A DNA stretch of 64,000 nucleotides from an uncultured Victivallales bacterium (GCA_964424705.1 CAYRKB010000001.1:22575-86574); one strand, 5' to 3'; numbered from the stretch's first letter, positions 26,082 through 53,019 are shown. Translations and numbers: made by a program. The notes: generated by a model from the sequence alone, not told the origin.

Positions 26082-26136
26082 GCAACACTCCCAGAGTTGG
26101 AGTGAGATAACCACGGTGGATTCGGACCGTCAAGGC

Positions 26137-32061: not shown

Positions 32062-32197
32062 CAAAGAGGGCATCGGCGGCTGTCTCTGGCGATTCCCCCC
32101 GCACGTAGGGTTGCGGATTCGCTCCGCCGTTCCTTCTTCTCTCTTGCATCATGAAATCCGTGCCAGGGGACATCCGGGCCAAGGTGATCGGGACGCC

Positions 32198-37353: not shown

Positions 37354-37531
37354 GATCGTGGGTGCCCCGCGGGTTATGCGCAGTGGCGGGGATCATGCAG
37401 GGGAAACGACAAAAGGTCAAGAATGTGACCTTCCGGCTAGAATACCATTGCGGCCTGCGCGCCGCTCCTGTATAAGAAGCGGCTCTAAAAAAAGACCCCG
37501 TCTGTTTTGTGTTGGCAGAGCCCATGCGTAA

Positions 37532-38281
37532 ATGAGCGAGGACGTTAAACATATTGTTCTGCGAGCCGTTGACGTGAAGCGCTACTATCACGGTGAGGAC
37601 GGCTCGGTCACGAAGGCGCTGGACGGCGTGACCCTCGACGTGGTCCGCGGCGAGTATCTTTCCATCATGGGCCCGTCGGGATCCGGGAAGTCCACCCTGT
37701 TCAACATGATCGGCGGAATCGACTGTCCGACCGAGGGCATGGTGTTTATCGACGAGATCGACATGGCCCAACTCGACGCCTACGAGCTGGCTTGGATGCG
37801 ATGCTACAAGATCGGCTATATATTCCAGAGCTACAACATTCTGCCCACCCTGAGCGCGCTGGAAAACACCACGCTGCCGATGCTTTTTGCGGGGCTCAGC
37901 CCGGGCGACGCCCGGGACAAGGCGGCGGAGATCCTGAAGATGGTGGGGCTGGGCGAGCGGCTGTTTCACCGGCCCTACGAGCTTTCCGGCGGCCAGCAGC
38001 AGCGCGTGGCCGTCGCGCGCGCGATCGCCAATGACCCGGTCATCATCCTTGCAGACGAGCCTACGGCCAACCTTGACACCAAGACCGGCGCGGAGATTAT
38101 CGACCTGCTCAACCGCCTGCGCAAGGAGCGCAACATCACGATCATTTCCGCGACGCATGACATGAAGATGCTCGACGTGTCCGACCGGATCCTGTGGATT
38201 CGCGACGGGCGGGTCGACCGGCTGGAGAAGCGGAAGGATTTGAATATCACGGTGGGCACCATCGGCGCGGCGGATCACTAG
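37532..38281 (+). CDS. ABC transporter ATP-binding protein (LolD/MacB-ATPase/FtsE-like), ATPase 1
   Basis: Walker A GPSGSGKST, the Q-loop, the signature LSGGQQQRVAVARA, Walker B ILADEPT and an H-loop are present. Confidence 0.9.
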   Translation: MSEDVKHIVLRAVDVKRYYHGEDGSVTKALDGVTLDVVRGEYLSIMGPSGSGKSTLFNMIGGIDCPTEGMVFIDEIDMAQLDAYELAWMRCYKIGYIFQSYNILPTLSALENTTLPMLFAGLSPGDARDKAAEILKMVGLGERLFHRPYELSGGQQQRVAVARAIANDPVIILADEPTANLDTKTGAEIIDLLNRLRKERNITIISATHDMKMLDVSDRILWIRDGRVDRLEKRKDLNITVGTIGAADH

Positions 38282-38299
38282 CGGCGACCGGGGCGTAAT

Positions 38300-38974
38300 T
38301 TGCAGGAAAGGGCGGACGTGGAAGCAGGCAACATACCCGAACAGATACGGCTGAGCTGGGCGATCGCCTTCCAGGTGAGCCTGGCTGGCCTGCGCCGGCG
38401 CTTCGGGCGGTCGATGATCACGATGTCGGGCGTGGTCCTTGCCATTGCCTTCCTGGCCTACATGCTTTCTTCGGAGAGCATCATCAAATCCCTGATTCAG
38501 CTCGATGACGATCAGCTCAACATCCGGCTCCAGGAGATGGGTGTAAACATTTTCCGCGGCGGCGGCACGGATCCCATGACCTACCTGCTGCTGGGGCTGA
38601 CGCTTCTGACCTGCACCGTCGGCATCACGAATTCCATGCTCATGGCCGTCACGGAGCGAACCCGAGAGATCGGGACGCTGAAGTGCCTGGGCGCCAGCGA
38701 TGACTTCATTCTCAAGACCTACTTCATCGAGTCCTCGCTCCACGGGGTCTGCGGGGCCGTGTTGGGCATGGTCATCGGGCTGCTCGTTGCCATCGGGGTG
38801 AACTGGATCAACTATGGCCACCAGGCGCTGTTCGCGCTGCCCCTGGTCGGCCTGCTCAGAGCCCTGGTCATATCCCTTGTCATGGGCGGCCTGATGACGG
38901 TCACCGCATCGCTGTTCCCCGCCTATGTGGCGGCGCGGAAGCAGCCCGTGGAAGCCTTGAGGGTGGAGGAATAG
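38300..38974 (+). CDS. minimal FtsX-domain ABC permease (4 TM, no large periplasmic domain)
   Basis: TM1 is MITMSGVVLAIAFLAYML and only ~45 aa lie before TM2. The C-terminal FtsX 3-TM bundle ends ...FPAYVAARKQPVEALRVEE. The track start is TTG at 38300; GTG at 38318 with a GGAAAGGG RBS is likely. Confidence 0.75.
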   Translation: MQERADVEAGNIPEQIRLSWAIAFQVSLAGLRRRFGRSMITMSGVVLAIAFLAYMLSSESIIKSLIQLDDDQLNIRLQEMGVNIFRGGGTDPMTYLLLGLTLLTCTVGITNSMLMAVTERTREIGTLKCLGASDDFILKTYFIESSLHGVCGAVLGMVIGLLVAIGVNWINYGHQALFALPLVGLLRALVISLVMGGLMTVTASLFPAYVAARKQPVEALRVEE

Positions 38975-39711
38975 TGAGCGACGCCATCATTACCATTCGC
39001 GGGGTCTCGAAGGTGTACCGGAAGGGCGAGGAGGAGGTCCACGCGCTCCGCGGGGTGACCCTCGACATCCAGAAGGGCCAGTACGTGTCGATCATGGGGC
39101 CGTCCGGGTCGGGGAAGTCCACGCTCTTCAATATCATCGGCGGGCTCGACACCCCGACTTCGGGGGACGTGCTGGTGGAAGGCCACAAGCTCGACCAGCT
39201 GAACTCGTCGCAGCTCTCGTGGTTCCGCTGTCACAAGATTGGCTTCATCTTCCAGTCGTTCAACCTCGTCCCCACGATGACCGCGCTGGAGAACGTTGCC
39301 ATCGCGCGCACCTTTGCGGGCGCGTCGCCGTCCGAGGCCCGGCGCGATGCGGCCGCGGTGCTCGAGAGCGTCGGCCTGGGCCATCGGCTGGACCACCTTC
39401 CGTCGCAGGTGTCGGGCGGGCAGCAGCAGCGCATTGCCATCGCGCGGGCCCTGGTGAACAAGCCTCTCATCATTCTGGCGGACGAGCCGACCGGGAACCT
39501 GGATCTCAAGACGGGCGAGGAAATCATCAACCTGCTGTCCGCGATGAAGAAGGACCTGGGGATCACGATCGTGACGGCCACGCACGATATGAAGATGCTG
39601 TCCCGCTCTGATTTTGTCATCCGGATCGACAGCGGCGCGATTGAGAGCATCACGGCGAAGAAGGACCTGAAGATCGTTGTGGGGTCGATTGACGGCAAGA
39701 CGGTGCTCTGA
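38974..39711 (+). CDS. ABC transporter ATP-binding protein (LolD/MacB-ATPase-like), ATPase 2
   Basis: Walker A GPSGSGKST and the signature LSGGQQQRIAIARA are present. It is ~55% identical to ATPase 1. Its start overlaps the permease stop. Confidence 0.9.
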   Translation: MSDAIITIRGVSKVYRKGEEEVHALRGVTLDIQKGQYVSIMGPSGSGKSTLFNIIGGLDTPTSGDVLVEGHKLDQLNSSQLSWFRCHKIGFIFQSFNLVPTMTALENVAIARTFAGASPSEARRDAAAVLESVGLGHRLDHLPSQVSGGQQQRIAIARALVNKPLIILADEPTGNLDLKTGEEIINLLSAMKKDLGITIVTATHDMKMLSRSDFVIRIDSGAIESITAKKDLKIVVGSIDGKTVL

Positions 39712-39718
39712 GGCCGGG

Positions 39719-40066
39719 ATGAATAAAATTGATCGGAGAAGCTCCCTCGCGGGAGTTCCGGTGATGCTGGATGGCGTTGCGGCGGAGCATAAGCCGGATG
39801 GGGCGATGGCCCTGCGGGTGAGGATCGGGCGCGGCGCGGGTTTTCTTGAGCGGTTCCGGCCTGCGGTGACGGAGCGGACGTACGAGCTGGACCGGTTCGG
39901 CGGGTTCGTGGTGGACGAGATTGACGGCAAAAGGAATGTGCTGAGCATCATTGACGCGTTTCAGGAGAGATTCAGGATGTCGCGCCGTGAGTCGGAGCTT
40001 GGCGTGGTGGCGTTTCTGAAGATTCTCTTAAAGAGAAACCTGATCGCGATTGTGGCGAAAGATTGA
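39719..40066 (+). CDS. PqqD-like protein (RiPP-recognition-element / peptide-chaperone fold)
   Basis: The segment ...RTYELDRFGGFVVDEIDGKRNVLSIIDAFQERFRMSRRESELGVVAFLKILLKRNLI fits the PqqD family pattern (YxLD..G..vW..iDG.rtv.eI...l...f.....a..dv..Fl..L...gLI). The ATG at 39719 follows the ATPase 2 stop. The track ORF starts at 39677. Confidence 0.6.
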   Translation: MNKIDRRSSLAGVPVMLDGVAAEHKPDGAMALRVRIGRGAGFLERFRPAVTERTYELDRFGGFVVDEIDGKRNVLSIIDAFQERFRMSRRESELGVVAFLKILLKRNLIAIVAKD

Positions 40067-40096
40067 CGCAGCGCGGGCTGTGCTGAAACAAGCGAG

Positions 40097-43000
40097 TTGT
40101 CCGTGACGATTATGAATGTGATGCGGTCTGAGGCCGGAAAGCGAGCGGGGCGGGGTCTGTCGAGGCCCGCGCTGAACATGGCCTGCGCTGTGGTGCTGGC
40201 TCTAACGGCGTTGGTTTCCCTCGGCCAGGAGGTCCCTGCGGCGCCTTCCGCGGAGGCCCGCGCCATGATTTCCGAGATGCGCGAGCTCTTCGGGTCGGCC
40301 GGGTCGATGGCGCCGGGGCAGCCGGGCAACATGGCTCTGGAGGCCGAGGTGGCCCGTCGCTTCGCAAAGAGCGGCTTCGCCACGGGATCGATTCCCTTCA
40401 GCGCGCCGGTCTTTGTGCCGGGCCGGACCGTTCTCACGCGGACCAACGAAGCCCCGGTGACTCTGTACACGATGCATCCCACGATGTACCGGCCGGGCAA
40501 TTTCGCCGAATCCGAGTTTGCGGCCGACCTGGTGTATCTAGGGAAGGGCGAGTATGAGGACCTGGCGCGGGTCAAGGGCTCGCAGCTGGAGGGCGCCATC
40601 GCGTTGATGGACTTCAACTGCGGCGCCCGGTGGCGGGACCTGCTGCGGTTCGGCGTGAGCGGCTTTGTCTTCATCGGCGCGCCGTCCTACGAGTATGCCG
40701 ATTCCTACTCGAAGGTGTACAACACCGAGGTCTCCGTGCCGCGCTTCTTCGCTGAGGCGGAGTCCGGCGGGAAGCTGAAGGCCGCCTGCCTTGCCGCCGA
40801 AAAGGACGCGTTCGCAATCCGGGTCGACGTCCAGTCCGAGCCGTCGCGATTCCAGCCGGGAGAGCTGAAGGACCTCTGGGTTCTTGTCCCCGGAAGCGAT
40901 CCTGAGCTGGGCAAGGAGATCGTGCTGTTCACGGCGCGGATGGACGCCAATAGCGTGGTGCCGGAGCTGGCGACCGGCGGCCAGGCCGCGATCAACCCGT
41001 ACCTCATGCTCAAGATGCTGGAAGATTTCACGGCGAAGCCGCCGAAGCGATCCGTGCTGCTCGTTGCGGTGAACGCGCACACGCAGGCGCACTTGGGCGA
41101 GCGCATCCTCGCGTGGCACCTGCTGGCGGATAGCAATGATGCCGCGAAGCTCCGCGGCGAGATGGCCCGCGAAATGAGGGTCGCGCGCCTGTACAGCGAG
41201 AACTACGGGCTGCTCAAGCTGGCCCCGGTGTCGCTCGACCAGGGCAGGCTTTTTGCCGCGGTCGAAATCCTTACCCAGCTTGACCTCAAGCGGCAGGCGC
41301 AGCGCAAGGCGCAGCGGGACGCGGCGAAAGACGGGGTGCCAGCGCTTGAAGCGACGCCAGCCGCCACGAACGCAAATGCCGAGATTTCCGAGGTCGATAC
41401 GAACGACGTGCTCGACCTCGCGGTCTTTGAGGAGCGGGACTATCGCGAAGCCATCGAGCGGGGCGTCAAGGCCGCGCGGGAGGAGGAGAAAGGCAGCTTT
41501 TTCTCGCGGCGCATGCGCGATGAGAAGATGGACCTGGCGCTCGCGCAGGAGCGGCAATGGCTCGAAAGCATGGAAGGCATGCCCTACGCCGAGATCCTGG
41601 AGATGGCGCAGCTGGCCAAGCCGGTGTTTGACGACGAAAAACTGTTCGAAAGCTGGCGGATTGACCTCGATTCATCGAGCGGGCAGCGCCTTTCCGTCAA
41701 GAAGGAAATTCAAACTGCGGCAATGAAGACCAAGAACGCGCTGCTGCAGGAGCGGATCCGCGCGACCCGGGACAAGCAGCTGAGCGAGGCCGAGCGAAGC
41801 GCGCGCCTGGCCGACGTGGAGCAGCGGAGGGTGGACGCAACCCGCGTGCTCGTGATGTTCAACAAGATCGACTTCGGCATCGGCCGGCGGAAAGTGCGCT
41901 ACAGGGACATTGCGGCGAACGAGGCGCAGCGCACGCTGCTCAAGCGGTACCGGGACGAGCTCACGGAGAAGTTCTCCTTCTGGCAGCGCCACCATCGGGG
42001 CCGGCTGGAGGCCGATGCCGCCGGGGATTCGGTCCGCGATCAGCTCGGGGGCGGGAAGGTTGTCCTCGCGCTGACCTTGGAGATGACAGCCAACAGCGGG
42101 AAGCTTGCTTTTTCCGCGAGCTGCCCGGGCTTCGAGCCGTCGTGGCAGAAGAACTTCGGCCAATTTGTCTCCGGGATTGTTGGCAATCTCTCCTCCAACC
42201 GTGCAGACCGGTGGACCCCCTACGTGGATTCGCTGAACCCCGTGCCGGGTCTGCAGCAGGTGGACCTGCTCTATTCAACGGACTCGGCCGTGCGGTACTT
42301 TGTCGCGGCGAAGAACGGAGTCCAGGGCTGCGGCACCCCGGCCCTGGCCCTCAAGAATGCGCTGGCCGGCAAGGGGCGGGTCTTCAGCCCGGGGGACACG
42401 CTGGAAGCGCTTGATGCGCAGCAGATCTTCGACCAGCAGGCGTGGCTGCGCGAGTTCCTGCCGGCGCTTCTGAACGATCCGAAGATGACCGCCCGCGAGA
42501 ACCTGGACGTTACGCTGGTGGGGCATGGCGCCACGTTCGACACGAGCCGGGGCCTGTGGTCCACGCTTCTCGGGACGTTCGCCATGGAGGAGATGACCGC
42601 GAACATTGTGCCGGAGAAGGCCCTGCCGGGCTGCATGGTCGTGCTTTACAGCAAAGCGGATCCTACGGCCGCGGCGAACTTCCTGTTGGATGGCGACGTC
42701 GTCAACTGCTATGCGGCGATGAGCGATATTACCGGGAAGGCTGTGGTCTACGGAATCGCCGAGGGCGGCGGCATGGCGCCGCTGGCCTACCAGATGGATA
42801 AGAACTGGCGCCAGGTGGTGGAAGCGCTGGACAAGGGCCGCATCCAGACCACCATGCAAATGGACAGCAACATCGCCCGCGACCCCGCCAAGACGCTGCC
42901 CATGTTCCCGTGCCGCGAGTTCCCGATCTTGGACAGGGTGGACCCGACGCTGGTGGGAACTGAACCGATTACCGTCGCGACCATCTGGCCGAAGATAGGA

Positions 43001-45625
43001 AGCAGCAAGTCGGATCCCGCGAAGTACGGGGTGCACGGCTTCTTCCTGCCGAACAGCGTCTGGTCGCACGCTGCGTCCGGCCCCGGCGCGGTCTACCTGA
43101 ACCGGAAAGACGGTGCGGCGGCTCAGGAATCCCTGATGGTCATCACGGAAAAGAAGCGCTGTTCGATCAATGCCACCCCTGAGAAGCCGGAGGGCACCGG
43201 CTACGCCACCGCCGGGGAGCTTGGGTCCGACCTTTTCGCGCACACGGCGGAGGACATGGATTCGCTGAACGGGTTCCGGAGAAATCGGCTCAAGGGCGTT
43301 GCCAACTCGCTTGTCGAGCGGTTCATCGGGGAGGGGAAGAAATCGCTCCAGGCCATGGATGTTGCGCGGCGAGCCAAGGACCACGGGGCGTTTCTGCAGG
43401 CGAACTACCGGGCGCTGGGAAGCGAGATCAAGGCGTACCTGCAACTCAGCGCCATGAATGCCGACATGCTGAAGGCCATCATCCTGTACATGGCCCTGAT
43501 GCTGCCTTTCTGCTTCTTCATCCAGAAGCTGCTTTTCGATTTCGACCTGCTGCAGCATGAGCTGCTCGCGTTCTCGGGATGCTTCGTCGCGATGTACAGC
43601 CTTTTCCGCGTGATCCACCCCGCCTTCACCGTTGCGGAAACGCCGGAGGCGATCTTCATTGCGTTCGTTCTAGGGGCGATCGGGCTCTTCGTCACCATGA
43701 TCATGCATTCCCGGTTCAAGTCGGACATGCAGATGATTTTCGGGAAGGTCGGCGGCATAGGTGACGACGCGGCCTATGGCACGGTCGGCACGACGGCCAT
43801 GATGGTGGGAATTCACAACATGCGGCGCAGGCGGGTGCGCACGGTGCTGACCACCTCGACCGTGATGCTCGTGATCTTCACGATGCTGACGTTCTCCAGC
43901 GTTTCGCAGCGGCTGGACCCCACGCTGATCAGGAAGGCGTCGGATGCGCCGTATACCGGGCTCTTCTTCCACTGGCCCGGCGGGAAGAATATGGACCAGG
44001 ATACGGTCAACGTCCTGCGAAACATCTTCTCGGACCGGGCGGATGTTGTTGTGAGGCGGACGATGGCGCTCACGGGCGCTTGGCCGATCGAGCCGGTGGG
44101 CGGCGGGCGGAGCGAGAGCGCCACGAATCTTATTCACGGCATCAAGAGCCTTGTCGGGCTGCCGTCGAACGATAGGGTGTTTGCCATGTCGCGACCCCTG
44201 GTTGCGGGCCGCCATTTCTCCGCCGATGATGCGAGCGAGATCATTCTGCCGGCGAAGGCCGCGGAGGCCATGAATTTGTCCGTGGCGGACGTGGGCCGGA
44301 CCACGCTGCGCTTTCATGGCGCGGACCTTGCGCTGGTGGGCATTGCGGACGACCAGCGCCTGCGCCTCGTCCGCGACATGAATCCCAATCTGCCGTTTCT
44401 GCCGTTTCTTGCGAATCAGGCGATGGGCGGTCCGAAGAAGGATCCCGAGTCGCTCGAGATCGCGGAGGATGACGTGAGCGCGATCGTGGCCGACACGGCC
44501 TCGCTGGTGCTGCTCCCCGCGACGGTGGCGAAGAACTGCGGCGCGCTCCCGCACAGCGTTTCCGTCCGCTTCCTTGATGAAGTGGTGGCGGGCCCCGGCT
44601 TTCACCTGTGGGAGGAGATGGACCGCCTGCTGACGATTACGCACGCCCGGTTCTACATCGGCAGCGAGAGCGCGTTCAAGGCCAACTCGGAGGCCGAGCG
44701 TGTCACGCAGGCGGGCATCTATTTCGTGAACAGTAACTACCGGACGTCCATCGGCGGGCTTGCGCGGCTTATCATTCCGCTGCTGATTGCCGGCCTGATC
44801 ATTCTCAACACGATGCTGGGCACGGTCTACGAGCGCAAGTCCGAGATCGCCATTTACAACGCCATCGGCCTGAACCCGACGCACATCTTCATGTTCTTTC
44901 TGGCGGAGGCGTTCGTGTACAGCTTCATCGGGTCCGTGGGCGGGTATCTCATCGGGCAGAGCCTGGCGATGACGCTGCAGCATTTTCACCTGATCCGGGA
45001 CATCGGCGTCAACTTCTCGTCGCTGATGGTGGTGTATGCCATCCTGTTCACCATTGGCCTGGTGCTTCTCTCCACGATCTACCCGGCCTACGTGGCGACG
45101 CGCACGGCGGTGCCCTCCGGAAAGCGGCGCTGGTCCATGCCGGCGCATGACGGCCACACGATGGACGTGGCGTTCCCCTTCATTTACGAGGGCAGCCTTT
45201 CTTCCGGCGTGATGTACTACATTTACGAGGACTTCCTCGCGTGCACGGAGAAGTCGCTCGGCAGCGTGATCGCCACGTTCGAGAGCAAGGCCGTTACCAC
45301 GGACGCCGAGGGAATGCCGGTGTACGCGCTGACGTATTCGATCGGGCTTGCGCCCTTTGACCTGGGCGTTACCCAGCGGGTGAAGTTCGTGGCGCGCTAT
45401 GAGAAGCGCGTGAGCAGTTACCGCCTGTCCGTCTCCATCGAGCACCTGTCCGGGCTGGACTCGAACTGGGTGAGCTTGAACCGCACGTTCCTGGAGCGCA
45501 TGCGGAAGTTTCTCATGGTGTGGCGCAATATGCCGCCGGCGATGTACGGGTGGTATTCGGATTGTGGAAAGAAGTTGTATCTGGACCAGCCGCTGCCGAC
45601 AAAGCCGGAGAGGGCTGTTCAGTAG
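40097..45625 (+). CDS. 1842-aa fusion: signal anchor + PA/M28-peptidase-like ectodomain + long charged/coiled linker + MacB/FtsX-type ABC permease
   Basis: The N-terminus ...MACAVVLALTALVSLG leads into M28/PA-like blocks (EGAIALMDFNCG...; LFTARMDANSVVPELATGGQAAIN; VAVNAHTQAHLGER). A MacB-like TM1 (RVRTVLTTSTVMLVIFTMLTFSSVSQRLDP) is followed by a ~300-aa periplasmic domain, then FtsX TM2-4 (...IAIYNAIGLNPTHIFMFFLAEAFVYSFIGS...). The start codon is uncertain: TTG 40097, GTG 40103 or ATG 40112. Confidence 0.75.
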   Translation: MSVTIMNVMRSEAGKRAGRGLSRPALNMACAVVLALTALVSLGQEVPAAPSAEARAMISEMRELFGSAGSMAPGQPGNMALEAEVARRFAKSGFATGSIPFSAPVFVPGRTVLTRTNEAPVTLYTMHPTMYRPGNFAESEFAADLVYLGKGEYEDLARVKGSQLEGAIALMDFNCGARWRDLLRFGVSGFVFIGAPSYEYADSYSKVYNTEVSVPRFFAEAESGGKLKAACLAAEKDAFAIRVDVQSEPSRFQPGELKDLWVLVPGSDPELGKEIVLFTARMDANSVVPELATGGQAAINPYLMLKMLEDFTAKPPKRSVLLVAVNAHTQAHLGERILAWHLLADSNDAAKLRGEMAREMRVARLYSENYGLLKLAPVSLDQGRLFAAVEILTQLDLKRQAQRKAQRDAAKDGVPALEATPAATNANAEISEVDTNDVLDLAVFEERDYREAIERGVKAAREEEKGSFFSRRMRDEKMDLALAQERQWLESMEGMPYAEILEMAQLAKPVFDDEKLFESWRIDLDSSSGQRLSVKKEIQTAAMKTKNALLQERIRATRDKQLSEAERSARLADVEQRRVDATRVLVMFNKIDFGIGRRKVRYRDIAANEAQRTLLKRYRDELTEKFSFWQRHHRGRLEADAAGDSVRDQLGGGKVVLALTLEMTANSGKLAFSASCPGFEPSWQKNFGQFVSGIVGNLSSNRADRWTPYVDSLNPVPGLQQVDLLYSTDSAVRYFVAAKNGVQGCGTPALALKNALAGKGRVFSPGDTLEALDAQQIFDQQAWLREFLPALLNDPKMTARENLDVTLVGHGATFDTSRGLWSTLLGTFAMEEMTANIVPEKALPGCMVVLYSKADPTAAANFLLDGDVVNCYAAMSDITGKAVVYGIAEGGGMAPLAYQMDKNWRQVVEALDKGRIQTTMQMDSNIARDPAKTLPMFPCREFPILDRVDPTLVGTEPITVATIWPKIGSSKSDPAKYGVHGFFLPNSVWSHAASGPGAVYLNRKDGAAAQESLMVITEKKRCSINATPEKPEGTGYATAGELGSDLFAHTAEDMDSLNGFRRNRLKGVANSLVERFIGEGKKSLQAMDVARRAKDHGAFLQANYRALGSEIKAYLQLSAMNADMLKAIILYMALMLPFCFFIQKLLFDFDLLQHELLAFSGCFVAMYSLFRVIHPAFTVAETPEAIFIAFVLGAIGLFVTMIMHSRFKSDMQMIFGKVGGIGDDAAYGTVGTTAMMVGIHNMRRRRVRTVLTTSTVMLVIFTMLTFSSVSQRLDPTLIRKASDAPYTGLFFHWPGGKNMDQDTVNVLRNIFSDRADVVVRRTMALTGAWPIEPVGGGRSESATNLIHGIKSLVGLPSNDRVFAMSRPLVAGRHFSADDASEIILPAKAAEAMNLSVADVGRTTLRFHGADLALVGIADDQRLRLVRDMNPNLPFLPFLANQAMGGPKKDPESLEIAEDDVSAIVADTASLVLLPATVAKNCGALPHSVSVRFLDEVVAGPGFHLWEEMDRLLTITHARFYIGSESAFKANSEAERVTQAGIYFVNSNYRTSIGGLARLIIPLLIAGLIILNTMLGTVYERKSEIAIYNAIGLNPTHIFMFFLAEAFVYSFIGSVGGYLIGQSLAMTLQHFHLIRDIGVNFSSLMVVYAILFTIGLVLLSTIYPAYVATRTAVPSGKRRWSMPAHDGHTMDVAFPFIYEGSLSSGVMYYIYEDFLACTEKSLGSVIATFESKAVTTDAEGMPVYALTYSIGLAPFDLGVTQRVKFVARYEKRVSSYRLSVSIEHLSGLDSNWVSLNRTFLERMRKFLMVWRNMPPAMYGWYSDCGKKLYLDQPLPTKPERAVQ

Positions 45626-45764
45626 TCGGTGATCCGTGGCCGGTGATCAGTAACGAGTGGCGGAAGATTGGGAGTCAGGATGAAGAGGACAGGGGTATAT
45701 TCGAGGTCCATTCTGGATACTGACTACTGGATTCTGTCTTCTGCTTACGTAAGAGGAGGTCTCT

Positions 45765-47774
45765 GTGTCGTTCACTGACGACAAAGAACTGAACGAATAT
45801 CGGCAGATCATGGCGCCGCCCGAAGTGTCAGGCTTCGAGGATGGCTTCAACTGGAAAGCCATCGCCGGCGCTATTTTCCTGGGCTTCATCGTGATGCCCG
45901 CGTCGGACTATCTCAGCCTTGTCATCGGCGGCGACGCCGGGCTTGGCAACACCATGAAGTGGATTCTGGTGATCCTCTTCGCCGAAATCGCGCGCCGCTC
46001 GTTCACCAGTCTGAAATGTCAGGAGCTGTACGTTCTGCAGTTCATGGTCGGCTATGCGATGGCCGACCAGTTCACCGGATACCTGTGGACCCAGTACGTG
46101 GCGCAGTCGGACTATATCAAGGGGCTGGGGCTCGACCTCCCCAAATGGGCGTTTCCCGCCGCCGAGGAATTGGAGCGGAGCGGCCGCACGTTCCTGGCTA
46201 AGCCGTGGCTGCCCATCATTGCCCTTACCATGTTCGGGGTCTTCATCAGCCGCATCCACAACTACGGCCTCGGCTACGTGCTTTACAGGGTTGTCAACGA
46301 CGTTGAGAAATTACCCTTCCCGTTCGCGCCCGTTGCGGCGGCAGGCATTGTGGCCCTGTCCACCGACCGCGGCGACGAGGCGAAGTGGCGCCGGCGCTGT
46401 TTCAGCATCGGCGGCATCGTTGGGATTACGTGGGGCATGATCTACATTTGCGTGCCCGTGATCACGGAGGCCATTCTTCCCAAGCGCGTCGAGCTCGTCC
46501 CCCTGATCTTTCTCGATTTCACGACGCAGTTCGGCAAGCTGCTGCCGGCCGTCCCTTTCAACCTCGTGCTGGACGTTGGCGCGTTTCTGGCCGGTATGAT
46601 CGTGCCGTGGTGGGGGGTGATCGGAGGAGCGGTCGCGCTGCTCATGACCTGGATTCTGAACCCGTTCCTCCAGCATATCGGCGTCCTCTCCCAGTGGCGG
46701 CCGGACATGGGCTACATCAATACGACGTTCGTCAACAGCATTGATTTCTATCTGTCGTTCGGAATCGGGGTGTCCCTGGCCATTACGTTCAGCCAGATGT
46801 TCATCACGGTCGGGGAGCGGATCAGGGAAAAGATGAAGCCCGGCGCGCAGCGCGTGATCACCCACAGAAAGACCATGGGGCAGGGGTTTCGTGAGAATTG
46901 GAAGATCCTGTTCACTAACAACCGTGCCCGCGGCGATTTCTCGATTTGGGTCGCCATCGGCATTTACCTCTTTGAGACGTTCGCATGGATCGGGCTAGGC
47001 CTGTACCTGATCGGGCCGCGCTATCCGTGGATGCTGCTGACCTTCTTTGCGCTGGTCTACACGCCGCTCTTCTCGTATGCGACGGCCAAGATGGAAGGGC
47101 TGATCGGCCGCGGGCTGAACCTGCCGATGCTCAGGGAAGTGACGATTCTCGCCACGGGGTACCAGGGCTCGGCCATCTGGTTCGCGCCCATGCCGATCGC
47201 GAACGTGGGGAGCGAGACGTCCGGCTTCCGGGTGCTCGAATTGACGGGCACGAAGATCCAGAGCCAGATCAAAACCATCGTGCTCACTCTGCCTATTGTC
47301 GTCATTGCGTCATTCTTCACGGCGGAGATTCTCTGGCGCATGGCGCCTGTGCCGTCGGCCGCGTACCCATGGACCGAGCGCATGTGGGAGATGAATATCC
47401 GGAACTGGGGCGTAATCTACACCTCGACGCTGGAGGGCGGATCCCAGTTCCTGGAGGCCCTGAACGGCAATTACGTGGTCTGGGGCCTCGTGGCCGGGTC
47501 TACGCTGCTTGGCTCGTTGACCATGCTGGGGCTGCCGGTCATGTTTATTTTCGGCGCGCTGGGCGGCCTGTCGCAGGTGTCCCCCGGCGCGATGTTCTGC
47601 GGCCTGGTCGGCGCCATTGTGGGACGGTTCTATTTCAGGAAACGTTACAAGGACATGTGGCTGAAGTATATGACGGTCGTGCTGGCAGGCTTCGGTTGCG
47701 GGATGGGCATTATCGCCATGGTCGGGATGGCCTTTACTGTGATCACGCGAATGTTAAGCCCCACGTTGTGGTGA
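45765..47774 (+). CDS. large polytopic integral membrane protein (>=14 predicted TM helices), family unknown
   Basis: GTG at 45765 is preceded by AAGAGGAGG. Hydrophobic helices run throughout (AIFLGFIVMP..., ILVILFAEIA..., WLPIIALTMFGVFI..., etc.). It has no ABC or MFS signatures. Confidence 0.7.
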   Translation: MSFTDDKELNEYRQIMAPPEVSGFEDGFNWKAIAGAIFLGFIVMPASDYLSLVIGGDAGLGNTMKWILVILFAEIARRSFTSLKCQELYVLQFMVGYAMADQFTGYLWTQYVAQSDYIKGLGLDLPKWAFPAAEELERSGRTFLAKPWLPIIALTMFGVFISRIHNYGLGYVLYRVVNDVEKLPFPFAPVAAAGIVALSTDRGDEAKWRRRCFSIGGIVGITWGMIYICVPVITEAILPKRVELVPLIFLDFTTQFGKLLPAVPFNLVLDVGAFLAGMIVPWWGVIGGAVALLMTWILNPFLQHIGVLSQWRPDMGYINTTFVNSIDFYLSFGIGVSLAITFSQMFITVGERIREKMKPGAQRVITHRKTMGQGFRENWKILFTNNRARGDFSIWVAIGIYLFETFAWIGLGLYLIGPRYPWMLLTFFALVYTPLFSYATAKMEGLIGRGLNLPMLREVTILATGYQGSAIWFAPMPIANVGSETSGFRVLELTGTKIQSQIKTIVLTLPIVVIASFFTAEILWRMAPVPSAAYPWTERMWEMNIRNWGVIYTSTLEGGSQFLEALNGNYVVWGLVAGSTLLGSLTMLGLPVMFIFGALGGLSQVSPGAMFCGLVGAIVGRFYFRKRYKDMWLKYMTVVLAGFGCGMGIIAMVGMAFTVITRMLSPTLW

Positions 47775-47795
47775 CAAGGGGAGTACGGGAATTTC

Positions 47796-50735
47796 ATGAG
47801 CGAAAAGACTGAAGGTTTAGGAAGAATGACGGGGCGGGCGTTTGTCCTCGGCCTCTTCTTTGCGGCGGTTTTTGCCTGGTTTACGGTCCTGCGCGAAAAC
47901 CGTCCTCCCTATGAGGCTTTGACGGCGACCAACATTCCCGTCCTCCCGTATGCCCTGCTCGTGGTCTCCGTGCTCGTTATCAACCCGCTGGTCAAGTTTC
48001 TGCGGCTGGCGCGGGTTTTTTCGCGCGTTGAGCTGCTCGTGATCTTCTTGATGGGAATGGTGTCGAACGGCATCGTTTCCTACGGTCTGCAGGCGCAGCT
48101 CGTGCCGCTTGTAGCGGGCCCGTCGAGCCGCTTCAACCACCCCGGGGTCAGGTGGAACGTGTATGTCGAGCCGTACCTCAATGAGGATTTCTATCTCGTC
48201 TCGAAGGGTTCCAGCAAGGCCGCCGCCAGCTACAGGGACGCGGACGCGGCCGCGGAGAAGGCAAAGTCCGTGCTCAAAGCGGCGCAGGACCTGACGGTGT
48301 GCAGGGAGGACCAGCAACGGGCCCAGGAGGCGCTGGACGGGCTTGTCGCGCCGCAGGGCCAGCCGCAGGTGCCTGAGACCGTGCGGCAGGGCTACGAACG
48401 CAAGCTGCGCATTGCCCAGCGCCAGTACCAGCAGGCTGAGAAGGCTTGGCAGGTGTATGCCGCCGCGAACGTGGAGCGTGAGGTCATTGCCACATTTGGC
48501 GAGAAGATCAAGCTGCTGGATGTCGAAAAGGCGGCGCGGAAGGAAGCCCTGGCGGCCATCAAGAAGCCGGCGACCGATTTCGTCAGCGAGTTTGAGAAGG
48601 GATTTGCGCCGGAGAAGCGGGCGATCCCCGGGTTTATCTATATCACGGGCGAAGGCTGGGAGAGCTACTCGTCCCGCTTCGAGCGCATGGTAAAGGGCCG
48701 GAAGGCCTTCGCCGAGCTGTATGAGGCAGATTGCCTGCTGGCCAGAGCCCGGCAGGGCGAAGGCCTCGACGTGGCAGCCGTGGACGCGGCTCTGGGAAGA
48801 GCGATTGTCCTGCTGGAACACATCGGCGACATGTCGCAGCTTGCTGAGCGGAAAGCTGCGTTCTCGGCCAAGCAGGCGGAGCTCGATGCCATCCGCGCGA
48901 AGGAGCAGTCAGGGCTGAAGGACCTCCAGGAGCGCGGCTACTATGCTAAGGACCGCGACATCGCATCGATCGAGAAGCAGACCAAAGCTACGACGAAGCG
49001 GATCGAGCTGCTGGACAAGCAGATTCTCAAGCTGACGGAGGCCGTGAAGGCGAAGATCGACCCGGAGGCGACAGTGCGCGGGCGCGCCGTCGCCGTGCTG
49101 GAGACCGCGCGCTCGATCCGCGCTGAATTCGGCACGGCGAAGGATATCCCGGCGCTGCGCGGCCGGCTGGCGGCAAGCCTTGCGACGTTCCGCTCGTTCG
49201 ACGCGTCCCTGCGCCGGTTCCTTGTGGGGGATATCCAGTGGAGCGTCTGGGCGAAGCCTCTCTTCAACTGGAGCCTGATCGTCTTTGCGACGTACATCGT
49301 CCTGATGTCGCTTAACGTCCTTATCTTCAGGCAGTGGGCCCATAATGAGAAGCTCATCTACCCGCTGGCAGAGCTTCCGCTGATCATGGCTGGCGCGGAT
49401 GACGTGGAACAGAAGGGCGTGCTGCCCCTGGTGTTCAAGAGCGGACTTTTCTGGACCGGGTTCTGCATATCCGCGGTCATCCTCGGGTGGAACCATCTGG
49501 CGGACGCCAGGATCATTGCCAACATCAGCCCGATCTCGCTCGACTACAAGTGGGGATCCTATGTGGACGGCAGCGTATTCAACGCGCTCAAGGAGACCCG
49601 CTTCAAGATTATCTTCTCCGTGATCGGCCTGACATTCCTCGTTCCGGCGGGAGTTTCTTACTCCATGTGGTTTTGGCAGGTGCTATGCATGGTGGAACTG
49701 CTCGTCATGGTCTGGCTTGGCATGGGGCAGAGCCGCGACTCATTCCAGTACCACTTCACGTATCTCATGAACTACCAGACGGCGCAGGGCGGCGGCGCCC
49801 TCATCGTCTTCGCCTCGGTCATTCTCTGGAAGTGCCGGAAGTACCTCTTGTCCGCCTTCTCGGCGCAGTCCGTTGCGGGCCTGGATCCGTCCGAGCGCAG
49901 CGAGCTGCGGGTGTCGTCCGCGCTATTCCTTGCGGGGTCCGTTGCGCTCGTGGCCATGTTCACGCTACGGCTCAACGTGAACATCTTTTACTCTGTCATC
50001 ATGTACCTGCTTTTGCTCGTCCTGACGATCGGCCTGGTGCGCGCGGTCGCAGAAGGCGGCGTCCTTGGCACCCAGGCGTTCTTCAACCCCTTCCACTTTA
50101 TCCGGCATGTGTTCGGCATGGACAAGGCCTGGAACTCGCCCGTGCTGATGGCGCCGCTGTGGATCTTTGTGGCGATGATGTACGTCGACATCAAGTCCTT
50201 CATCGCGCCCGCGATGGCCAACGCGATGAAGCTCCGCGACGACATGCGCATCAACCGCCTCAAGTTCCACGGTGCCGTGTGGGCCAGCATTCTGGCCGCG
50301 ATGGCCGTCGGGTTTGCGGTGCACCTGATCCTCGCCTACTCGGGCGGCACCGGCAAGATGAGCGGGTGGCATTACTCGGGCGGCGTGCAGGACCAGATGG
50401 GCTTTGGCTTCATCCAGCGCATGATGGAAGAGAAGCCCGTGGACGTGGCGGGGGTGCGGTGGTGGATGCTCGCCGGCGCGTCGATCATGGTGATGGTGAT
50501 CCTGCTGCGCCAGCAGTTCAACTGGATTACGCATCCGATCGGCCTGATCATGTGCATCAACCCGATGATGTTCCTGTTCTGGGGATCCATGTTTATCGGA
50601 TGGTGTTTCAAGTCGCTCGTGAGCAAATACGGGAATCGGGAAACCTACCAGCGCCTCCGCTATCTGGCCGTCGGCCTGATCGTTGGCGAGCTTTTTGTTG
50701 CGGTCCTCGGGTGGCACCGGTTTGACTTCTGGTGA
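47796..50735 (+). CDS. 979-aa integral membrane protein: N-terminal TM cluster, ~300-aa cytoplasmic/periplasmic coiled-coil insert, C-terminal multi-TM domain; family unknown
   Basis: TMs lie at residues ~15-110. Residues ~150-470 are charged and helical (AAEKAKSVLKAAQDL...QERGYYAKDRDIASIEKQTKATTKRIELLDKQILKLTEAVKAK). About 11 further TMs follow to the C-terminus. Confidence 0.7.
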   Translation: MSEKTEGLGRMTGRAFVLGLFFAAVFAWFTVLRENRPPYEALTATNIPVLPYALLVVSVLVINPLVKFLRLARVFSRVELLVIFLMGMVSNGIVSYGLQAQLVPLVAGPSSRFNHPGVRWNVYVEPYLNEDFYLVSKGSSKAAASYRDADAAAEKAKSVLKAAQDLTVCREDQQRAQEALDGLVAPQGQPQVPETVRQGYERKLRIAQRQYQQAEKAWQVYAAANVEREVIATFGEKIKLLDVEKAARKEALAAIKKPATDFVSEFEKGFAPEKRAIPGFIYITGEGWESYSSRFERMVKGRKAFAELYEADCLLARARQGEGLDVAAVDAALGRAIVLLEHIGDMSQLAERKAAFSAKQAELDAIRAKEQSGLKDLQERGYYAKDRDIASIEKQTKATTKRIELLDKQILKLTEAVKAKIDPEATVRGRAVAVLETARSIRAEFGTAKDIPALRGRLAASLATFRSFDASLRRFLVGDIQWSVWAKPLFNWSLIVFATYIVLMSLNVLIFRQWAHNEKLIYPLAELPLIMAGADDVEQKGVLPLVFKSGLFWTGFCISAVILGWNHLADARIIANISPISLDYKWGSYVDGSVFNALKETRFKIIFSVIGLTFLVPAGVSYSMWFWQVLCMVELLVMVWLGMGQSRDSFQYHFTYLMNYQTAQGGGALIVFASVILWKCRKYLLSAFSAQSVAGLDPSERSELRVSSALFLAGSVALVAMFTLRLNVNIFYSVIMYLLLLVLTIGLVRAVAEGGVLGTQAFFNPFHFIRHVFGMDKAWNSPVLMAPLWIFVAMMYVDIKSFIAPAMANAMKLRDDMRINRLKFHGAVWASILAAMAVGFAVHLILAYSGGTGKMSGWHYSGGVQDQMGFGFIQRMMEEKPVDVAGVRWWMLAGASIMVMVILLRQQFNWITHPIGLIMCINPMMFLFWGSMFIGWCFKSLVSKYGNRETYQRLRYLAVGLIVGELFVAVLGWHRFDFW

Positions 50736-50742
50736 TGCTCCC

Positions 50743-51681
50743 GTGAAGAAACCCGACCGCCAGCCGCGCGAGTTCGCCTGGGACGGCGTCGAGTTCCAGA
50801 TCCCCTGGAACTGGGAGCTCGGGCTCTATGAGTTCATGCGCAAGGGGGTTTCCCGTATCGAGGTGGAAGACGAATACGTCGTCCGGCTCGAAGCGGAATG
50901 GATCCGGCCGACGAAGCGGGCGCTGAGGCCGGCTGCCATCCTTGAAAAATACAAGGATGCAGCGGGCGCCCTCACGCGCATGGCGCATGAAACGATCGAA
51001 ATTCATGGCCTGCCGCCCGGCTGGGCGGCCACGCGTGCCCTGCAGAGGACCACGGGCAGCTCCCGGAAGAAGCGCGGGCTGGCGGTGTCGGAGCGCGAGA
51101 GCATTTGCGCGATCTACGTGTGCCCCCAGTCGAAGCTCCTCCTCTTCGTCCTGCTGCACTTTTCATCCGAAGACAAGGAAAACCCGGAAGAGGTGATGCG
51201 CATGATCGCGGGCAGCTTCCGGGATCACGCTGAGGCCCCGCTCATCCCCTGGAAGCTGTTCGATATCGCGTTTGAATTGCCGCGCGAATTCAAGCTCGCC
51301 CGCGCGTCGTTCGATGTCGGCGCCAAGCATATGGTGTTTCGCTGGAAGACGCGCCGGCTCCATCTGTGGCATTTCGCGTGCGCCGACATGTTCCTCAAGG
51401 GCGGGGAAGGCATGGAGGAGTGGGTCACCGGCTACCTGAACGCCTATTCGCAGATTCGCGGAATTGTCTTCATGCCCGGAAAGAACGGGGAAATCCTCTG
51501 GCGGCGGCGCGCGCGGCATCTCTTTGGGCACCGCAACGAGATTGCCAGCTGGTGTTTCCAGTACAAGGCCGGGTGCCGCCTGGACGCTGGAAGAAACCAG
51601 CTCCTGGCCTGGGTCTATCACTACCGCGAGGCGGGCGACCTGCACGTAATCCCCGCGTCCTGCCTGCCGCTCGGGAGTTGA
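50743..51681 (+). CDS. soluble hypothetical protein (312 aa), last gene of the plus-strand operon
   Basis: A GTG start lies 7 nt after the preceding stop. The protein is Trp/aromatic-rich with two similar halves (...FAWDGVEFQIPWNWELGLYEF... / ...PLIPWKLFDIAFELPREFKL...). The track ORF 50683..51681 extends upstream in-frame across the previous stop region. Confidence 0.55.
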   Translation: MKKPDRQPREFAWDGVEFQIPWNWELGLYEFMRKGVSRIEVEDEYVVRLEAEWIRPTKRALRPAAILEKYKDAAGALTRMAHETIEIHGLPPGWAATRALQRTTGSSRKKRGLAVSERESICAIYVCPQSKLLLFVLLHFSSEDKENPEEVMRMIAGSFRDHAEAPLIPWKLFDIAFELPREFKLARASFDVGAKHMVFRWKTRRLHLWHFACADMFLKGGEGMEEWVTGYLNAYSQIRGIVFMPGKNGEILWRRRARHLFGHRNEIASWCFQYKAGCRLDAGRNQLLAWVYHYREAGDLHVIPASCLPLGS

Positions 51682-51729: not shown

Positions 51730-52824
51730 CTATTTCACGTCCGCCATGTCGTAGCGCGTCGTGCCCAGCCCGAGTTTCTCCAGCCACTGGACCTGCACGT
51801 AGGGATCCTTGCCGTGCAGCTTTTCAAAGAGGTGTTTTCCGTCGCGCAGCATGTACGGCGGCGTGATGGAGCCCGGAATCACCTCCTCGGACTTGATCAT
51901 GTCGAGGCACGCCTGCTCGACGGCCACGATGTCCTGGCCCGCAGCGATGCCGATGTCGGGGACGAGCGCCGGGGTGGTGAAGCCCCAGCAGTCGCAGTAG
52001 ATCGTGATGTGCATGAGCGTATTGATGAAGAAGACGTCTTCCGGCTTGAACGTGTCCAGCACCAGCTTGGCGACCCGCGCCAGGCCTTCCTGGAAGAGGT
52101 TGAACTGCGGCGCTTGGATGCGGATTGCCTTGGTAGGGCAGGCGAGCATGCAGTGCATGCACCGCCGGCAGTGGTGCCAGAAGATGTTGTAGTCGCCCTG
52201 TTCGTTGAACGTGTTGGCCTGGGTCGAGCACTCCTCGAGGCACTTGTTGCAGTGCGTGCACTTGCTCTTATCCCATACCAGCTCCCCTTCAAGCCCGTGC
52301 ATGGCCCCTCGGGTCTCGCCGGGCGTGCAGCCCATGGCGAGGTTCTTGCACGCACCCCCGAACCCGCACGCGCCATGCCCTTTGATATGCGAGAAATCGA
52401 TCAACACGTCCGCTTCCACAATGGGCCGTCCAAGCCAGGCCACGGGCAGGCTGGGCCACCCGGTTTCCAGGCGCACGAGGTCCTTGCCGTCCGCGCCCAG
52501 GGCCGGCACGAGCTCAGCGCCGATGGTCTCCTTCGCGTAGCCGCGGTCGGAGGCCCCCGTGATGCTGCCGTCCGTCACGAATACGCGCTTGGGGTTGCCG
52601 GTCTTGATGTGGTCCACGAGGAGCTTCACGAAGAGCGGATGAATGGTCGAGTAGCCGATGCCGCCGCCCAGGTGCATTTTGATGGCCACGGTCTTCCCGG
52701 CGACGCGCTCCTGGATGGGAAGCAGCGCGAGCAGGCGGCTGAACTTGGCGGGCAGCGTGCGGTCGCGGTCGAGCTTCTCCGGACGGGCCGATGCGAACAG
52801 AACTTTGGACGCGGTCGTAGCCAT
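51730..52824 (-). CDS. DUF362-domain protein with 4Fe-4S ferredoxin-type cluster motifs
   Basis: The motifs CTHCNKCLEEC and CRRCMHCMLACP are present. DUF362 family blocks include GKTVAIKMHLGG and DFSHIKGHGACGFGGACKN. The ATG at 52824 has a GGAGAGG RBS. Confidence 0.75.
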   Translation of the reverse strand: MATTASKVLFASARPEKLDRDRTLPAKFSRLLALLPIQERVAGKTVAIKMHLGGGIGYSTIHPLFVKLLVDHIKTGNPKRVFVTDGSITGASDRGYAKETIGAELVPALGADGKDLVRLETGWPSLPVAWLGRPIVEADVLIDFSHIKGHGACGFGGACKNLAMGCTPGETRGAMHGLEGELVWDKSKCTHCNKCLEECSTQANTFNEQGDYNIFWHHCRRCMHCMLACPTKAIRIQAPQFNLFQEGLARVAKLVLDTFKPEDVFFINTLMHITIYCDCWGFTTPALVPDIGIAAGQDIVAVEQACLDMIKSEEVIPGSITPPYMLRDGKHLFEKLHGKDPYVQVQWLEKLGLGTTRYDMADVK

Positions 52825-53019
52825 GATTCCTCTCCCCGGGTTGTCGCTCTTAATGCGTCCCATATTGACCATATCGGCCGCATGGTTGGCAAGCCTGCAG
52901 ATTGCGTTAGCCGGGGTCCGCGCGGGTCCTCCATGGGACCGCGGGAGCACACGCGTGCCCTGTCCCGCCCAATGCCCAAGGGCGCGCAGGCCGGATGTCT
53001 GAAGCGACCCCTAAGCATT

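Follow-up and report, generated by a model that had tools for sequence, protein, structure and literature searches.

A conserved eight-gene cluster of an uncultured Victivallales bacterium combining a type VII ABC assembly, a pseudo-peptidase ectodomain and two OPT/YSL-superfamily carriers

Background

ATP-binding cassette (ABC) systems of type VII, such as MacAB-TolC, LolCDE, FtsEX-EnvC, YbbAP-TesA and YtrEF, combine LolD/MacB/FtsE-like ATPases with an FtsX-fold permease of four transmembrane (TM) helices that has a periplasmic domain between TM1 and TM2. They serve in lipoprotein sorting, efflux, cell-wall hydrolase control and lipid extraction, each of these jobs being defined by the periplasmic partner. 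Here we describe a cluster of eight genes (g1 to g8, positions 37532-51681) within a 64,000-nucleotide stretch of DNA from an uncultured Victivallales bacterium (GCA_964424705.1, CAYRKB010000001.1:22575-86574), referred to below as the window. By fold and ATPase type the predicted proteins place the cluster in the type VII superfamily, with an FtsX-fold permease of the same layout, ATPases of the same kind that have all motifs intact and, as in LolC/LolE, an asymmetric permease pair; by analogy, mechanotransmission would presumably be common to all of them. Unlike those systems, the cluster has two different ATPases, and one of its permeases consists of only the TM core while the other carries in addition ~1080 ectodomain residues, three extra TM helices and a C-terminal domain. 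It also has no partner of the MacA/TolC, LolA, EnvC or TesA type, and instead contains two carriers of the OPT/YSL superfamily, a PqqD-like protein and an orphan.

Separate parts of the cluster have likenesses of their own. The carrier g7 resembles the OPT/YSL family (TC 2.A.67) in having a fold of the type of barley Yellow Stripe 1 (YS1; PDB 7wsr). However, g7 falls in separate Pfam DUF families and has a ~340-aa periplasmic helical insert, and g6 and g7 form a pair of paralogs whose genes are tied to those of an ABC system, whereas the known carriers act alone and are proton-driven. The ectodomain of the giant permease g5 is comparable to nicastrin (of gamma-secretase), nicalin (of the BOS complex), GPAA1 and the transferrin receptor (TfR), all of which have the M28 (+PA) fold with the metal ligands lost; as in nicastrin-type proteins, it is placed outside the cytoplasmic membrane, on top of a polytopic membrane machine. 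Unlike them, g5 is bacterial, its ectodomain is fused in one chain to an ABC permease and is interrupted and extended by ~700 further residues, and its partners are transporters, not a protease or an insertase. The likeness may be due to descent or to parallel loss of catalysis. In the binding-protein-dependent secondary transporters (TRAP and TTT) an extracytoplasmic ligand-binding module feeds a secondary-carrier fold, which is an analogy only, with no homology; unlike in TRAP and TTT, the receptor here would be ATP-driven and membrane-integral. Finally, g4 passes the Pfam threshold for PqqD, yet it differs from proteins with a PqqD-type recognition element (RRE) for ribosomally synthesised and post-translationally modified peptides (RiPPs) in having no RiPP context and in being fused to a transporter in some genomes.

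In the library searched, no literature was found on DUF6785/DUF6784, on combinations of FtsX with OPT, with PqqD or with nicastrin/nicalin, or on MacB in PVC phyla, nor was a paper or curated family found that describes the system. An earlier reading of the window, made from sequence only, had proposed an undescribed system, and both this search and the missed cutoffs of the curated families (below) agree with it.

Conservation of the gene set

Relatives of g5 were found in at least 534 genomes in a scan of one genome per GTDB species, and the analysis covered the best 80 of these at least 534 loci. Taxa are named as by the depositors of the metagenome-assembled genomes. The best 80 loci are labelled Lentisphaerota/Victivallales/Oligosphaera, Kiritimatiellia, Verrucomicrobiota, Planctomycetota or 'PVC group' and have identities of 36-67%, while relatives at 26-29% identity carry the labels Latescibacterota, Armatimonadota, Omnitrophota, TA06 and Brocadiia. 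The hosts, in at least 534 species-level genomes, are mostly uncultured anaerobes of guts, digesters and sediments. Among the best 80 loci the only cultured strain is Oligosphaera ethanolica DSM 24202 (L021), the presence of the cluster in which makes it experimentally testable.

The gene set is strongly co-conserved and widespread. When the eight proteins were searched by tblastn against the 30 PVC-type loci with enough flanking DNA, g7 was present in all 30, g6 in 29, g1 in 28, g2, g3 and g4 in 26 each, and g8 in 19. In most PVC loci the whole set is found together. At least 12 gene orders exist for the set. The commonest is g1-g4-g5-g6-g7-g2-g3-g8, and the order in the window belongs to a minority. 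Across the different orders g1-(g4)-g5 usually stay together, the usual neighbours of g1 in other genomes being g4-g5, and g2-g3 are never apart. All-against-all clustering of ORFs of at least 70 aa from 83 loci gave no further conserved neighbour, the extra clusters being shadow ORFs, and no membrane-fusion protein (MFP), outer-membrane factor (OMF), precursor peptide or maturase was conserved beside the cluster in these 83 loci.

Across distant phyla, including Latescibacterota and Armatimonadota, the giant permease together with a g6-like or g7-like OPT carrier forms an invariant core. Reduced forms in distant phyla consist of a short FtsX protein, one ATPase, the giant and one OPT-like gene (L003, L071, L072), and a still smaller form has only the giant and an OPT-like gene. 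Because these minimal systems have one gene per layer, the eight-gene form looks, at the level of gene content, like a version of the minimal system that was duplicated and diverged layer by layer.

Two arrangements seen among the distant relatives may be recorded here. On a Latescibacterota chromosome (OZ244937.1; L067:8141-20879) a tandem pair, made of a short DUF6785/DUF6784 carrier and a giant M28-FtsX permease, occurs twice, with no cognate ATPase within 10 kb. A variant cluster in the Logan assembly SRR27730043 (L085:2094-14445) comprises a giant with Peptidase_M28 and FtsX (1538 aa), a 654-aa protein, a second large FtsX protein (1005 aa), a DUF6785 protein (657 aa) and a 223-aa protein; it adjoins a NurA gene, and no ATPase was called nearby.

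The giant permease carries a dead peptidase

The gene g5 (40097-45625, or 40178-45625) encodes 1842 aa from a TTG at 40097 or 1815 aa from an ATG at 40178, and which of the two is the start codon is ambiguous. By hydropathy its parts are, in order, a signal-anchor, an ectodomain of ~1080 aa, three extra TM helices, a MacB-type TM1, a 284-aa periplasmic domain, TM2-4 and a cytoplasmic tail of ~180 aa. Pfam gave a single match on the whole protein, FtsX at residues 1560-1670 (6.6e-14, 52.4 bits vs a cutoff of 25.5), and cutting g5 into five pieces gave no Pfam match. A profile of 35 homologs was more informative. In the permease half it matched MacB (5lil, 2.5e-13) as well as YtrF, LolC and LolF in the PDB, and g5 homologs carry MacB_PCD (PF12704). 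These matches, the FtsX domains and the intact LolD-like ATPases sustain the assignment of a type VII (MacB/FtsX-like) assembly with a giant ectodomain that had been made from the sequence beforehand.

A profile of the N-terminal ~310 residues of g5 matched 2ek8 (4.5e-9), YwaD (9.6e-6), nicastrin (1.3e-4 to 5e-3) and nicalin (1.2e-3), and the same ectodomain family profile also matches TfR. A PA/M28-like ectodomain had been predicted, and as a fold this was right. It lies at 40235-41134 (+ strand, as are all features of the cluster given below) and is an M28 aminopeptidase fold with an inserted PA domain. However, the motifs HHDS, GANDDASG and AEELGLLGS of active M28 enzymes read ARMDANS, ATGGQAA and NAHTQAHLGER in g5. 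The co-catalytic zinc ligands (His, Asp, Glu, Asp/Glu, His) are replaced, with the HxD, GAxDD and EE motifs gone in all 35 homologs, and the metal ligands and the catalytic Glu are lost in 35 of the 35 aligned homologs, P0039 included. Even the most distant aligned homolog, which still matches Pfam Peptidase_M28, has non-catalytic residues at these positions. From its sequence, then, the ectodomain should be regarded as an M28 fold that is a dead enzyme and is not to be classed as a peptidase. A proteolytic role is unlikely because these residues are lost in every aligned homolog, which contradicts the earlier suggestion of proteolytic processing at the outer leaflet. Non-catalytic M28 ectodomains on membrane machines, in the style of nicastrin and nicalin, accordingly exist in bacteria.

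Downstream of the M28/PA part, an all-helical insertion of ~300 aa with long hairpins (41135-42043; helices 300-603 in the model) has no Pfam match, and its boundary is drawn from the model. The order of secondary-structure elements suggests that the remainder of the M28 fold resumes after it. A beta-rich domain (model residues 775-971) and then a three-helix stalk (1000-1076) lead into the membrane (42557-43462). The TM scan places the three extra TM helices at 43466-43705, where the motifs LPFCFF and HPAF are highly conserved, and they precede the MacB/LolC-type module (43841-45079) made of TM1, the 284-aa periplasmic core domain and TM2-TM4, the FtsX domain. The cytoplasmic C-terminal domain (45080-45622, ~180 aa) belongs to no recognisable family and contains many invariant W/R/P/D columns; with its 181 aa neither Pfam nor PADLOC gave a match.

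The best-scoring hidden Markov model for the permease half of g5 is the PADLOC model PDLC01991, 'CARF_m8--CARF_LolE_TM' (137.8 bits, 9.2e-41, vs 52 bits for Pfam FtsX). It is colinear over 43466-45079, taking in the extra TM helices (model positions 78-203), TM1, the periplasmic domain and TM2-4, and a second PADLOC model, 'CARF_Beta-galactosidase_LolE_TM', is also a giant of ~1800 aa. There is thus a sister family of giant LolE-like permeases. The g5 ectodomain and C-terminal domain are not matched by the PADLOC CARF_LolE_TM models, and neither the window nor the examined loci contain cas genes.

The membrane partners are OPT/YSL-superfamily carriers

The polytopic proteins g6 (45765-47774, 669 aa) and g7 (47826-50735, 969 aa, or 979 aa from 47796) had been left as unknown membrane partners in the sequence-only reading, and they can now be identified. 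Pfam OPT is matched by 12 of 33 g6 orthologs, nearly end to end and with a best value of 1.1e-7. More than 1000 clusters homologous to g6 are present in a large protein database, many of them with PF03169, and NCBI annotates several g6 homologs as 'peptide transporter' or 'OPT/YSL family transporter'. A PDB profile search with g6 gave no match. In Pfam, g7 is DUF6785 plus DUF6784, and its PDB profile search returned coiled-coil noise only. Foldseek gave 7wsr, barley YS1, as the sole match at E<=1e-3, and the model of g7 has a predicted YS1-type fold with both core and scaffold domains. The carriers have 12-14% sequence identity with YS1, a fold without structural homologs according to its authors and, as the sole solved OPT/YSL structure, a homodimer (PMC9691689).

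The two carriers are related to each other at a distance that direct comparison does not reach, with E 0.23 in BLASTP of g6 against g7 and E 0.05 in hhalign of the g6 family against the long g7 family. The relationship is visible only with the short DUF6785/DUF6784 family, with which the g6 family is colinear over 437 columns in profile-profile alignment (89.9% probability, E 1.7e-6). Because of the OPT matches, the Foldseek match to 7wsr and this colinear alignment, g6 and g7 are distant paralogs inside the OPT/YSL superfamily. The OPT/YSL fold gives a first functional context to Pfam DUF6785/DUF6784, and the cluster gives one to bacterial OPT/YSL proteins, which are almost uncharacterised. 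With such partners the likely function moves away from polymer extrusion, motility or adhesion, as had been suggested, to the transport of a small peptide-like substrate.

After TM3, g7 contains a helical-bundle/coiled-coil insertion of ~340 aa (48210-49235; helices 129-470 in the model). Short DUF6785 proteins of other phyla (~660-700 aa) lack it. By the positive-inside rule the insertion is probably periplasmic, since the loop between TM2 and TM3, KFLRLARVFSR, carries a strong positive charge.

ATPases, minimal permease and small soluble proteins

The ATPases g1 (37532-38281, 249 aa) and g3 (38974-39711, 245 aa) are LolD/MacB/FtsE-like paralogs with 55.7% identity. Both match Pfam ABC_tran (7.6e-32 and 2.4e-36) and both have intact Walker A, Q-loop, signature, Walker B and H-loop. 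Orthologs of g1 are 76-89% identical. The minimal FtsX-type permease g2 (38300-38974, 224 aa) always adjoins g3, the pair being invariant in all gene orders. It matches Pfam FtsX (8e-18, 65.1 bits vs a cutoff of 25.5), has 26% identity with the FtsX module of g5 and, in the TM scan, shows four TM helices with a periplasmic loop of only ~40 aa, so that unlike g5 it is without a sizeable periplasmic domain between TM1 and TM2.

The top NCBIfam matches of g1 and g3 are LolD, MacB, YbbA, DevA and FtsE, all below the equivalog cutoffs. The LolD model gave 212-238 bits on the ATPases (212 on g1) vs a cutoff of 308. For MacB the ATPases reached 196-214 bits and g5 27 bits, vs 966, and the cluster also departs from MacAB-TolC in that its ATPases are separate genes and no MacA-type MFP or OMF is among the conserved neighbours. 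With the lolCE model g2 reached 55.3 and g5 25.4 bits vs 362, short of LolCDE. The cluster likewise falls short of FtsEX, FtsX models giving 21-32 bits vs 225-255 and FtsE 183-213 bits vs 265. All NCBIfam scores being far below the curated cutoffs, the cluster does not score as Lol, MacAB, FtsEX, DevCA or BceAB, in agreement with what had been stated from the sequence. The Pfam and NCBIfam scans also agree with the domain calls made then, namely two ATPases, a minimal FtsX protein, a PqqD-like protein, a giant permease, two polytopic proteins and a 312-aa protein.

The C-terminal tails of g1 (38207-38278) and g3 (39640-39708) have a common motif, (K/R)xx(L/V)x(I/V)x(I/V)Gx(I/V)(D/G/E)G. It also occurs on orthologs of g1 and g3, including those of single-ATPase systems of distant phyla, and is absent from unrelated ABC ATPases in the same loci. 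The motif resembles a docking peptide of beta-strand type, with g4 (PqqD-like) or the tail domain of g5 as possible partners.

The small cytoplasmic protein g4 (39719-40066, 115 aa, with an alternative TTG start at 39677) is PqqD-like (RRE-type), scoring 31.7 bits vs the Pfam cutoff of 23.4; on the NCBIfam PqqD, lasso and SCM equivalog models it is below all cutoffs. In P0007, P0010, L008, L011 and L056 it is fused to the N-terminus of the giant permease, and these fusions are real on inspection. Long 'fusion' ORFs noted for g1, g3 and g7 turned out to be artefacts of upstream ORF extension or of a longer insert. All-against-all ORF clustering of the 83 loci gave no conserved neighbour that is a RiPP precursor peptide or maturation enzyme.

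The last gene, g8 (50743-51681), encodes a soluble protein of 312 aa for which no Pfam, NCBIfam or PDB match was obtained, even with a 26-sequence family profile, and a Pfam scan of the 26 orthologs gave nothing meaningful. An exhaustive HMMER search found only 322 representatives of the family among 1.84 billion proteins, all of ~300 aa and unfused. From these searches g8 is a soluble orphan specific to this system.

A possible mechanism and its alternatives

We tentatively propose that the eight genes encode one inner-membrane complex with three paired layers. In this proposal g1 and g3 would form a heterodimeric ATPase motor, the minimal permease g2 and the giant permease g5 a heterodimeric type VII transducer, and g6 and g7 an OPT/YSL-fold carrier heterodimer that would be the actual translocation path. 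One complex is argued for by the pairing of the layers, by their collapse in minimal systems, by the invariant pair of giant and carrier and by the fusion of the PqqD-like protein to the giant, which is of the Rosetta-stone type. The pseudo-peptidase of g5, having lost the M28 ligands as in the receptor-type pseudo-peptidases nicastrin, nicalin and TfR, would serve, without catalysis, as a receptor or lid for the capture of a peptide-like ligand, such as an oligopeptide or an amino-acid-derived chelate. A ligand of this kind is suggested because three unrelated modules, the OPT/YSL carriers, the aminopeptidase-derived domain and the PqqD/RRE domain, point to it. ATP binding and hydrolysis would be transmitted via a MacB-type stalk, as in other type VII systems, and the motion would reposition the ectodomain and the periplasmic helical insert of g7 and thereby load the OPT/YSL pair or act as its gate. 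Transport through the carriers would then take the substrate over the cytoplasmic membrane, most likely into the cell, a direction proposed because all characterised OPT/YSL members are importers. On the cytoplasmic face g4 and g8 may be accessory or regulatory subunits. The stronger claim, that the cluster stands for a new hybrid class of transporter in which an ATP-driven type VII mechanotransducer with a dead-peptidase receptor like nicastrin or TfR physically loads or gates an OPT/YSL heterodimer, is more doubtful.

Several points weigh against this proposal. The contact between the ABC module and the OPT carriers is deduced from co-conservation, which also fits tight co-regulation. To our knowledge export, extraction or activation is the task of every type VII ABC system characterised, and none aids import. 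Characterised OPT/YSL carriers, HvYS1 among them, are proton-coupled and need no ATPase, and a lone DUF6785/DUF6784 protein with no ABC genes nearby (L084) suggests that such a carrier can work by itself. On Pfam OPT (PF03169) g6 itself scores 13.8 bits vs a cutoff of 25.8, over model positions 119-621 of 623. No fold was matched by the ~700 remaining residues of the ectodomain, which make up the helical insertion (~300 aa), the beta-rich domain and the three-helix stalk, or by the C-terminal domain of g5, and the predicted structures are AlphaFold models built from alignments of 19 to 33 sequences. Both the substrate and the direction of transport are guesses.

The cluster could instead be an extraction or export machine, in which the type VII module pulls a substrate from the outer leaflet or periplasm and the giant ectodomain delivers it outwards, as in LolCDE, MacB, HrtBA and YbbAP-TesA. 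Candidate substrates would be lipoproteins, lipopeptides, envelope precursors and secreted peptides; in this reading the OPT/YSL pair would run in reverse and move a cytoplasmic peptide-like precursor presented by g4 to the periplasm. This would be in keeping with every characterised type VII system, since these act outwards or within the envelope, with the resemblance of the g5 permease half to MacB, LolC and LolF, and with the typical role of PqqD/RRE domains in presenting peptides to downstream machinery. However, no conserved MFP, OMF, LolA-like carrier, precursor-peptide gene or modifying enzyme belongs to the cluster or adjoins it, a conserved small ORF could not be hidden in intergenic gaps of such short and variable length, and no OPT/YSL exporter is known. 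We consider export unlikely. It is less probable again that two physically separate transporters are linked here, the OPT/YSL carriers being merely co-expressed with an independent MacB-like ABC system, as would be the case for nutrient peptide uptake beside an antimicrobial-peptide or detergent resistance pump. The solitary carrier at L084, the several Latescibacterota loci where the 10 kb around the giant and carrier pair contain no cognate ATPase, and the JGI label of one homolog, 'ABC-type antimicrobial peptide transport system permease', would fit such an arrangement. It is harder to reconcile with the adjacency of giant and OPT-like gene, which has outlasted at least 12 rearrangements and is still seen between phyla at identities of 25-30%, with the parallel one-to-two duplication of every layer, or with the large periplasmic insert of g7, gained only in the clade with the largest ectodomain; the tandem duplication of carrier plus giant at L067 is hard to explain without direct partnership.

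Two further explanations seem scarcely credible. An active surface protease or processing machine, whose M28/PA ectodomain would cleave at the outer face while the OPT carriers take up the products, meets the replacement of all metal-ligand and catalytic Glu-Glu motifs in 35 of 35 homologs. An export-and-immunity cassette for a RiPP or bacteriocin, or else a defence or CRISPR-ancillary effector, is hinted at by the PqqD domain of g4, by the export of some peptides by MacB-type pumps, by the NCBIfam darobactin and lactococcin-972 ATPase models among the sub-threshold matches and by the colinear PDLC01991 match. However, no conserved precursor, radical-SAM or maturation gene was found in the 83 loci, there is no CRISPR/cas context, and the C-terminal domain of g5 is outside the PADLOC match. 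PADLOC gave no match on g4, g6, g7 or g8, and its matches on the ATPases are generic P-loop ones. A defence or CRISPR-ancillary identity drawn from the PADLOC match was rejected, as only the permease half matches and no cas genes are present.

If the proposal of a single three-layered complex is true, the cluster would be a new functional class of type VII system, with two OPT/YSL carriers and a built-in pseudo-peptidase receptor as the partners. It could connect a primary ABC motor with an OPT-fold secondary carrier for the first time. As a hybrid transporter of the kind described above, it would be the first MacB-fold system to take part in import and the first case of primary-active control over an OPT/YSL carrier, and the family would be of ancient origin and widely distributed among PVC, Latescibacterota, Armatimonadota and related phyla.

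Locus layout and surrounding genes

The cluster consists of eight ORFs, all on the + strand, with lengths that match those given earlier. From g1 to g8 the intergenic spacings are 18, -1, 7, 30 to 111 (depending on the start of g5), 139, 21 to 51 and 7 nt. A 297-kb JGI metagenome contig includes a stretch identical to the window, on which a separate, independent JGI gene call found these eight genes too, placing the starts of g4, g5, g7 and g8 slightly later. The coordinates and strand of eight co-directional, tightly packed genes are thereby borne out. The GC content of the window is ~63%. With orthologs of 30-89% identity found for every ORF across dozens of independent loci, chance reading frames of a GC-rich genome can be discounted. 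Promoter-like and terminator-like sites inside the cluster show no excess over the shuffled expectation, and co-transcription of the eight genes is plausible.

The gap between g5 and g6 (45626-45764, 139 nt) contains a 32-codon ORF that overlaps the start of g6. Because the length of this gap is not kept among orthologous loci, where it varies from 15 to 106 nt, a conserved small gene there is unlikely. A sigma-54-like -24/-12 element (TGGCAGAGCCCATGC, 37513-37527) is located 20 nt upstream of the g1 ATG, and the window has two sigma-54 response regulators (12487-13899, + strand; 24771-26114, - strand). As a promoter of g1 the element was rejected; it is present upstream of 4 of 58 orthologs vs 4.5 expected and is probably due to chance.

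On the left the cluster is bordered by a divergent gene with a GYF_2 domain (35452-37353, - strand) and on the right by a convergent DUF362/Fer4 (ferredoxin) gene (51730-52950, - strand). GYF_2 is the only recognisable domain in this left-hand protein and in another large one (21092-24718, + strand). The gene at 35452-37353 has a counterpart upstream on the JGI contig too, and is not kept beside the cluster in other loci. No Rfam families and no tRNAs were found in the window. Just upstream of the cluster are tandem MGH1-like/GH63-like glycoside hydrolase genes (31973-34039 and 34154-35359, + strand). A UvrD-type helicase (57005-59110, + strand) and a glycyl-radical enzyme (PFL-like plus Gly_radical; 60841-63081, - strand) are unrelated to the cluster and fit an anaerobic host.

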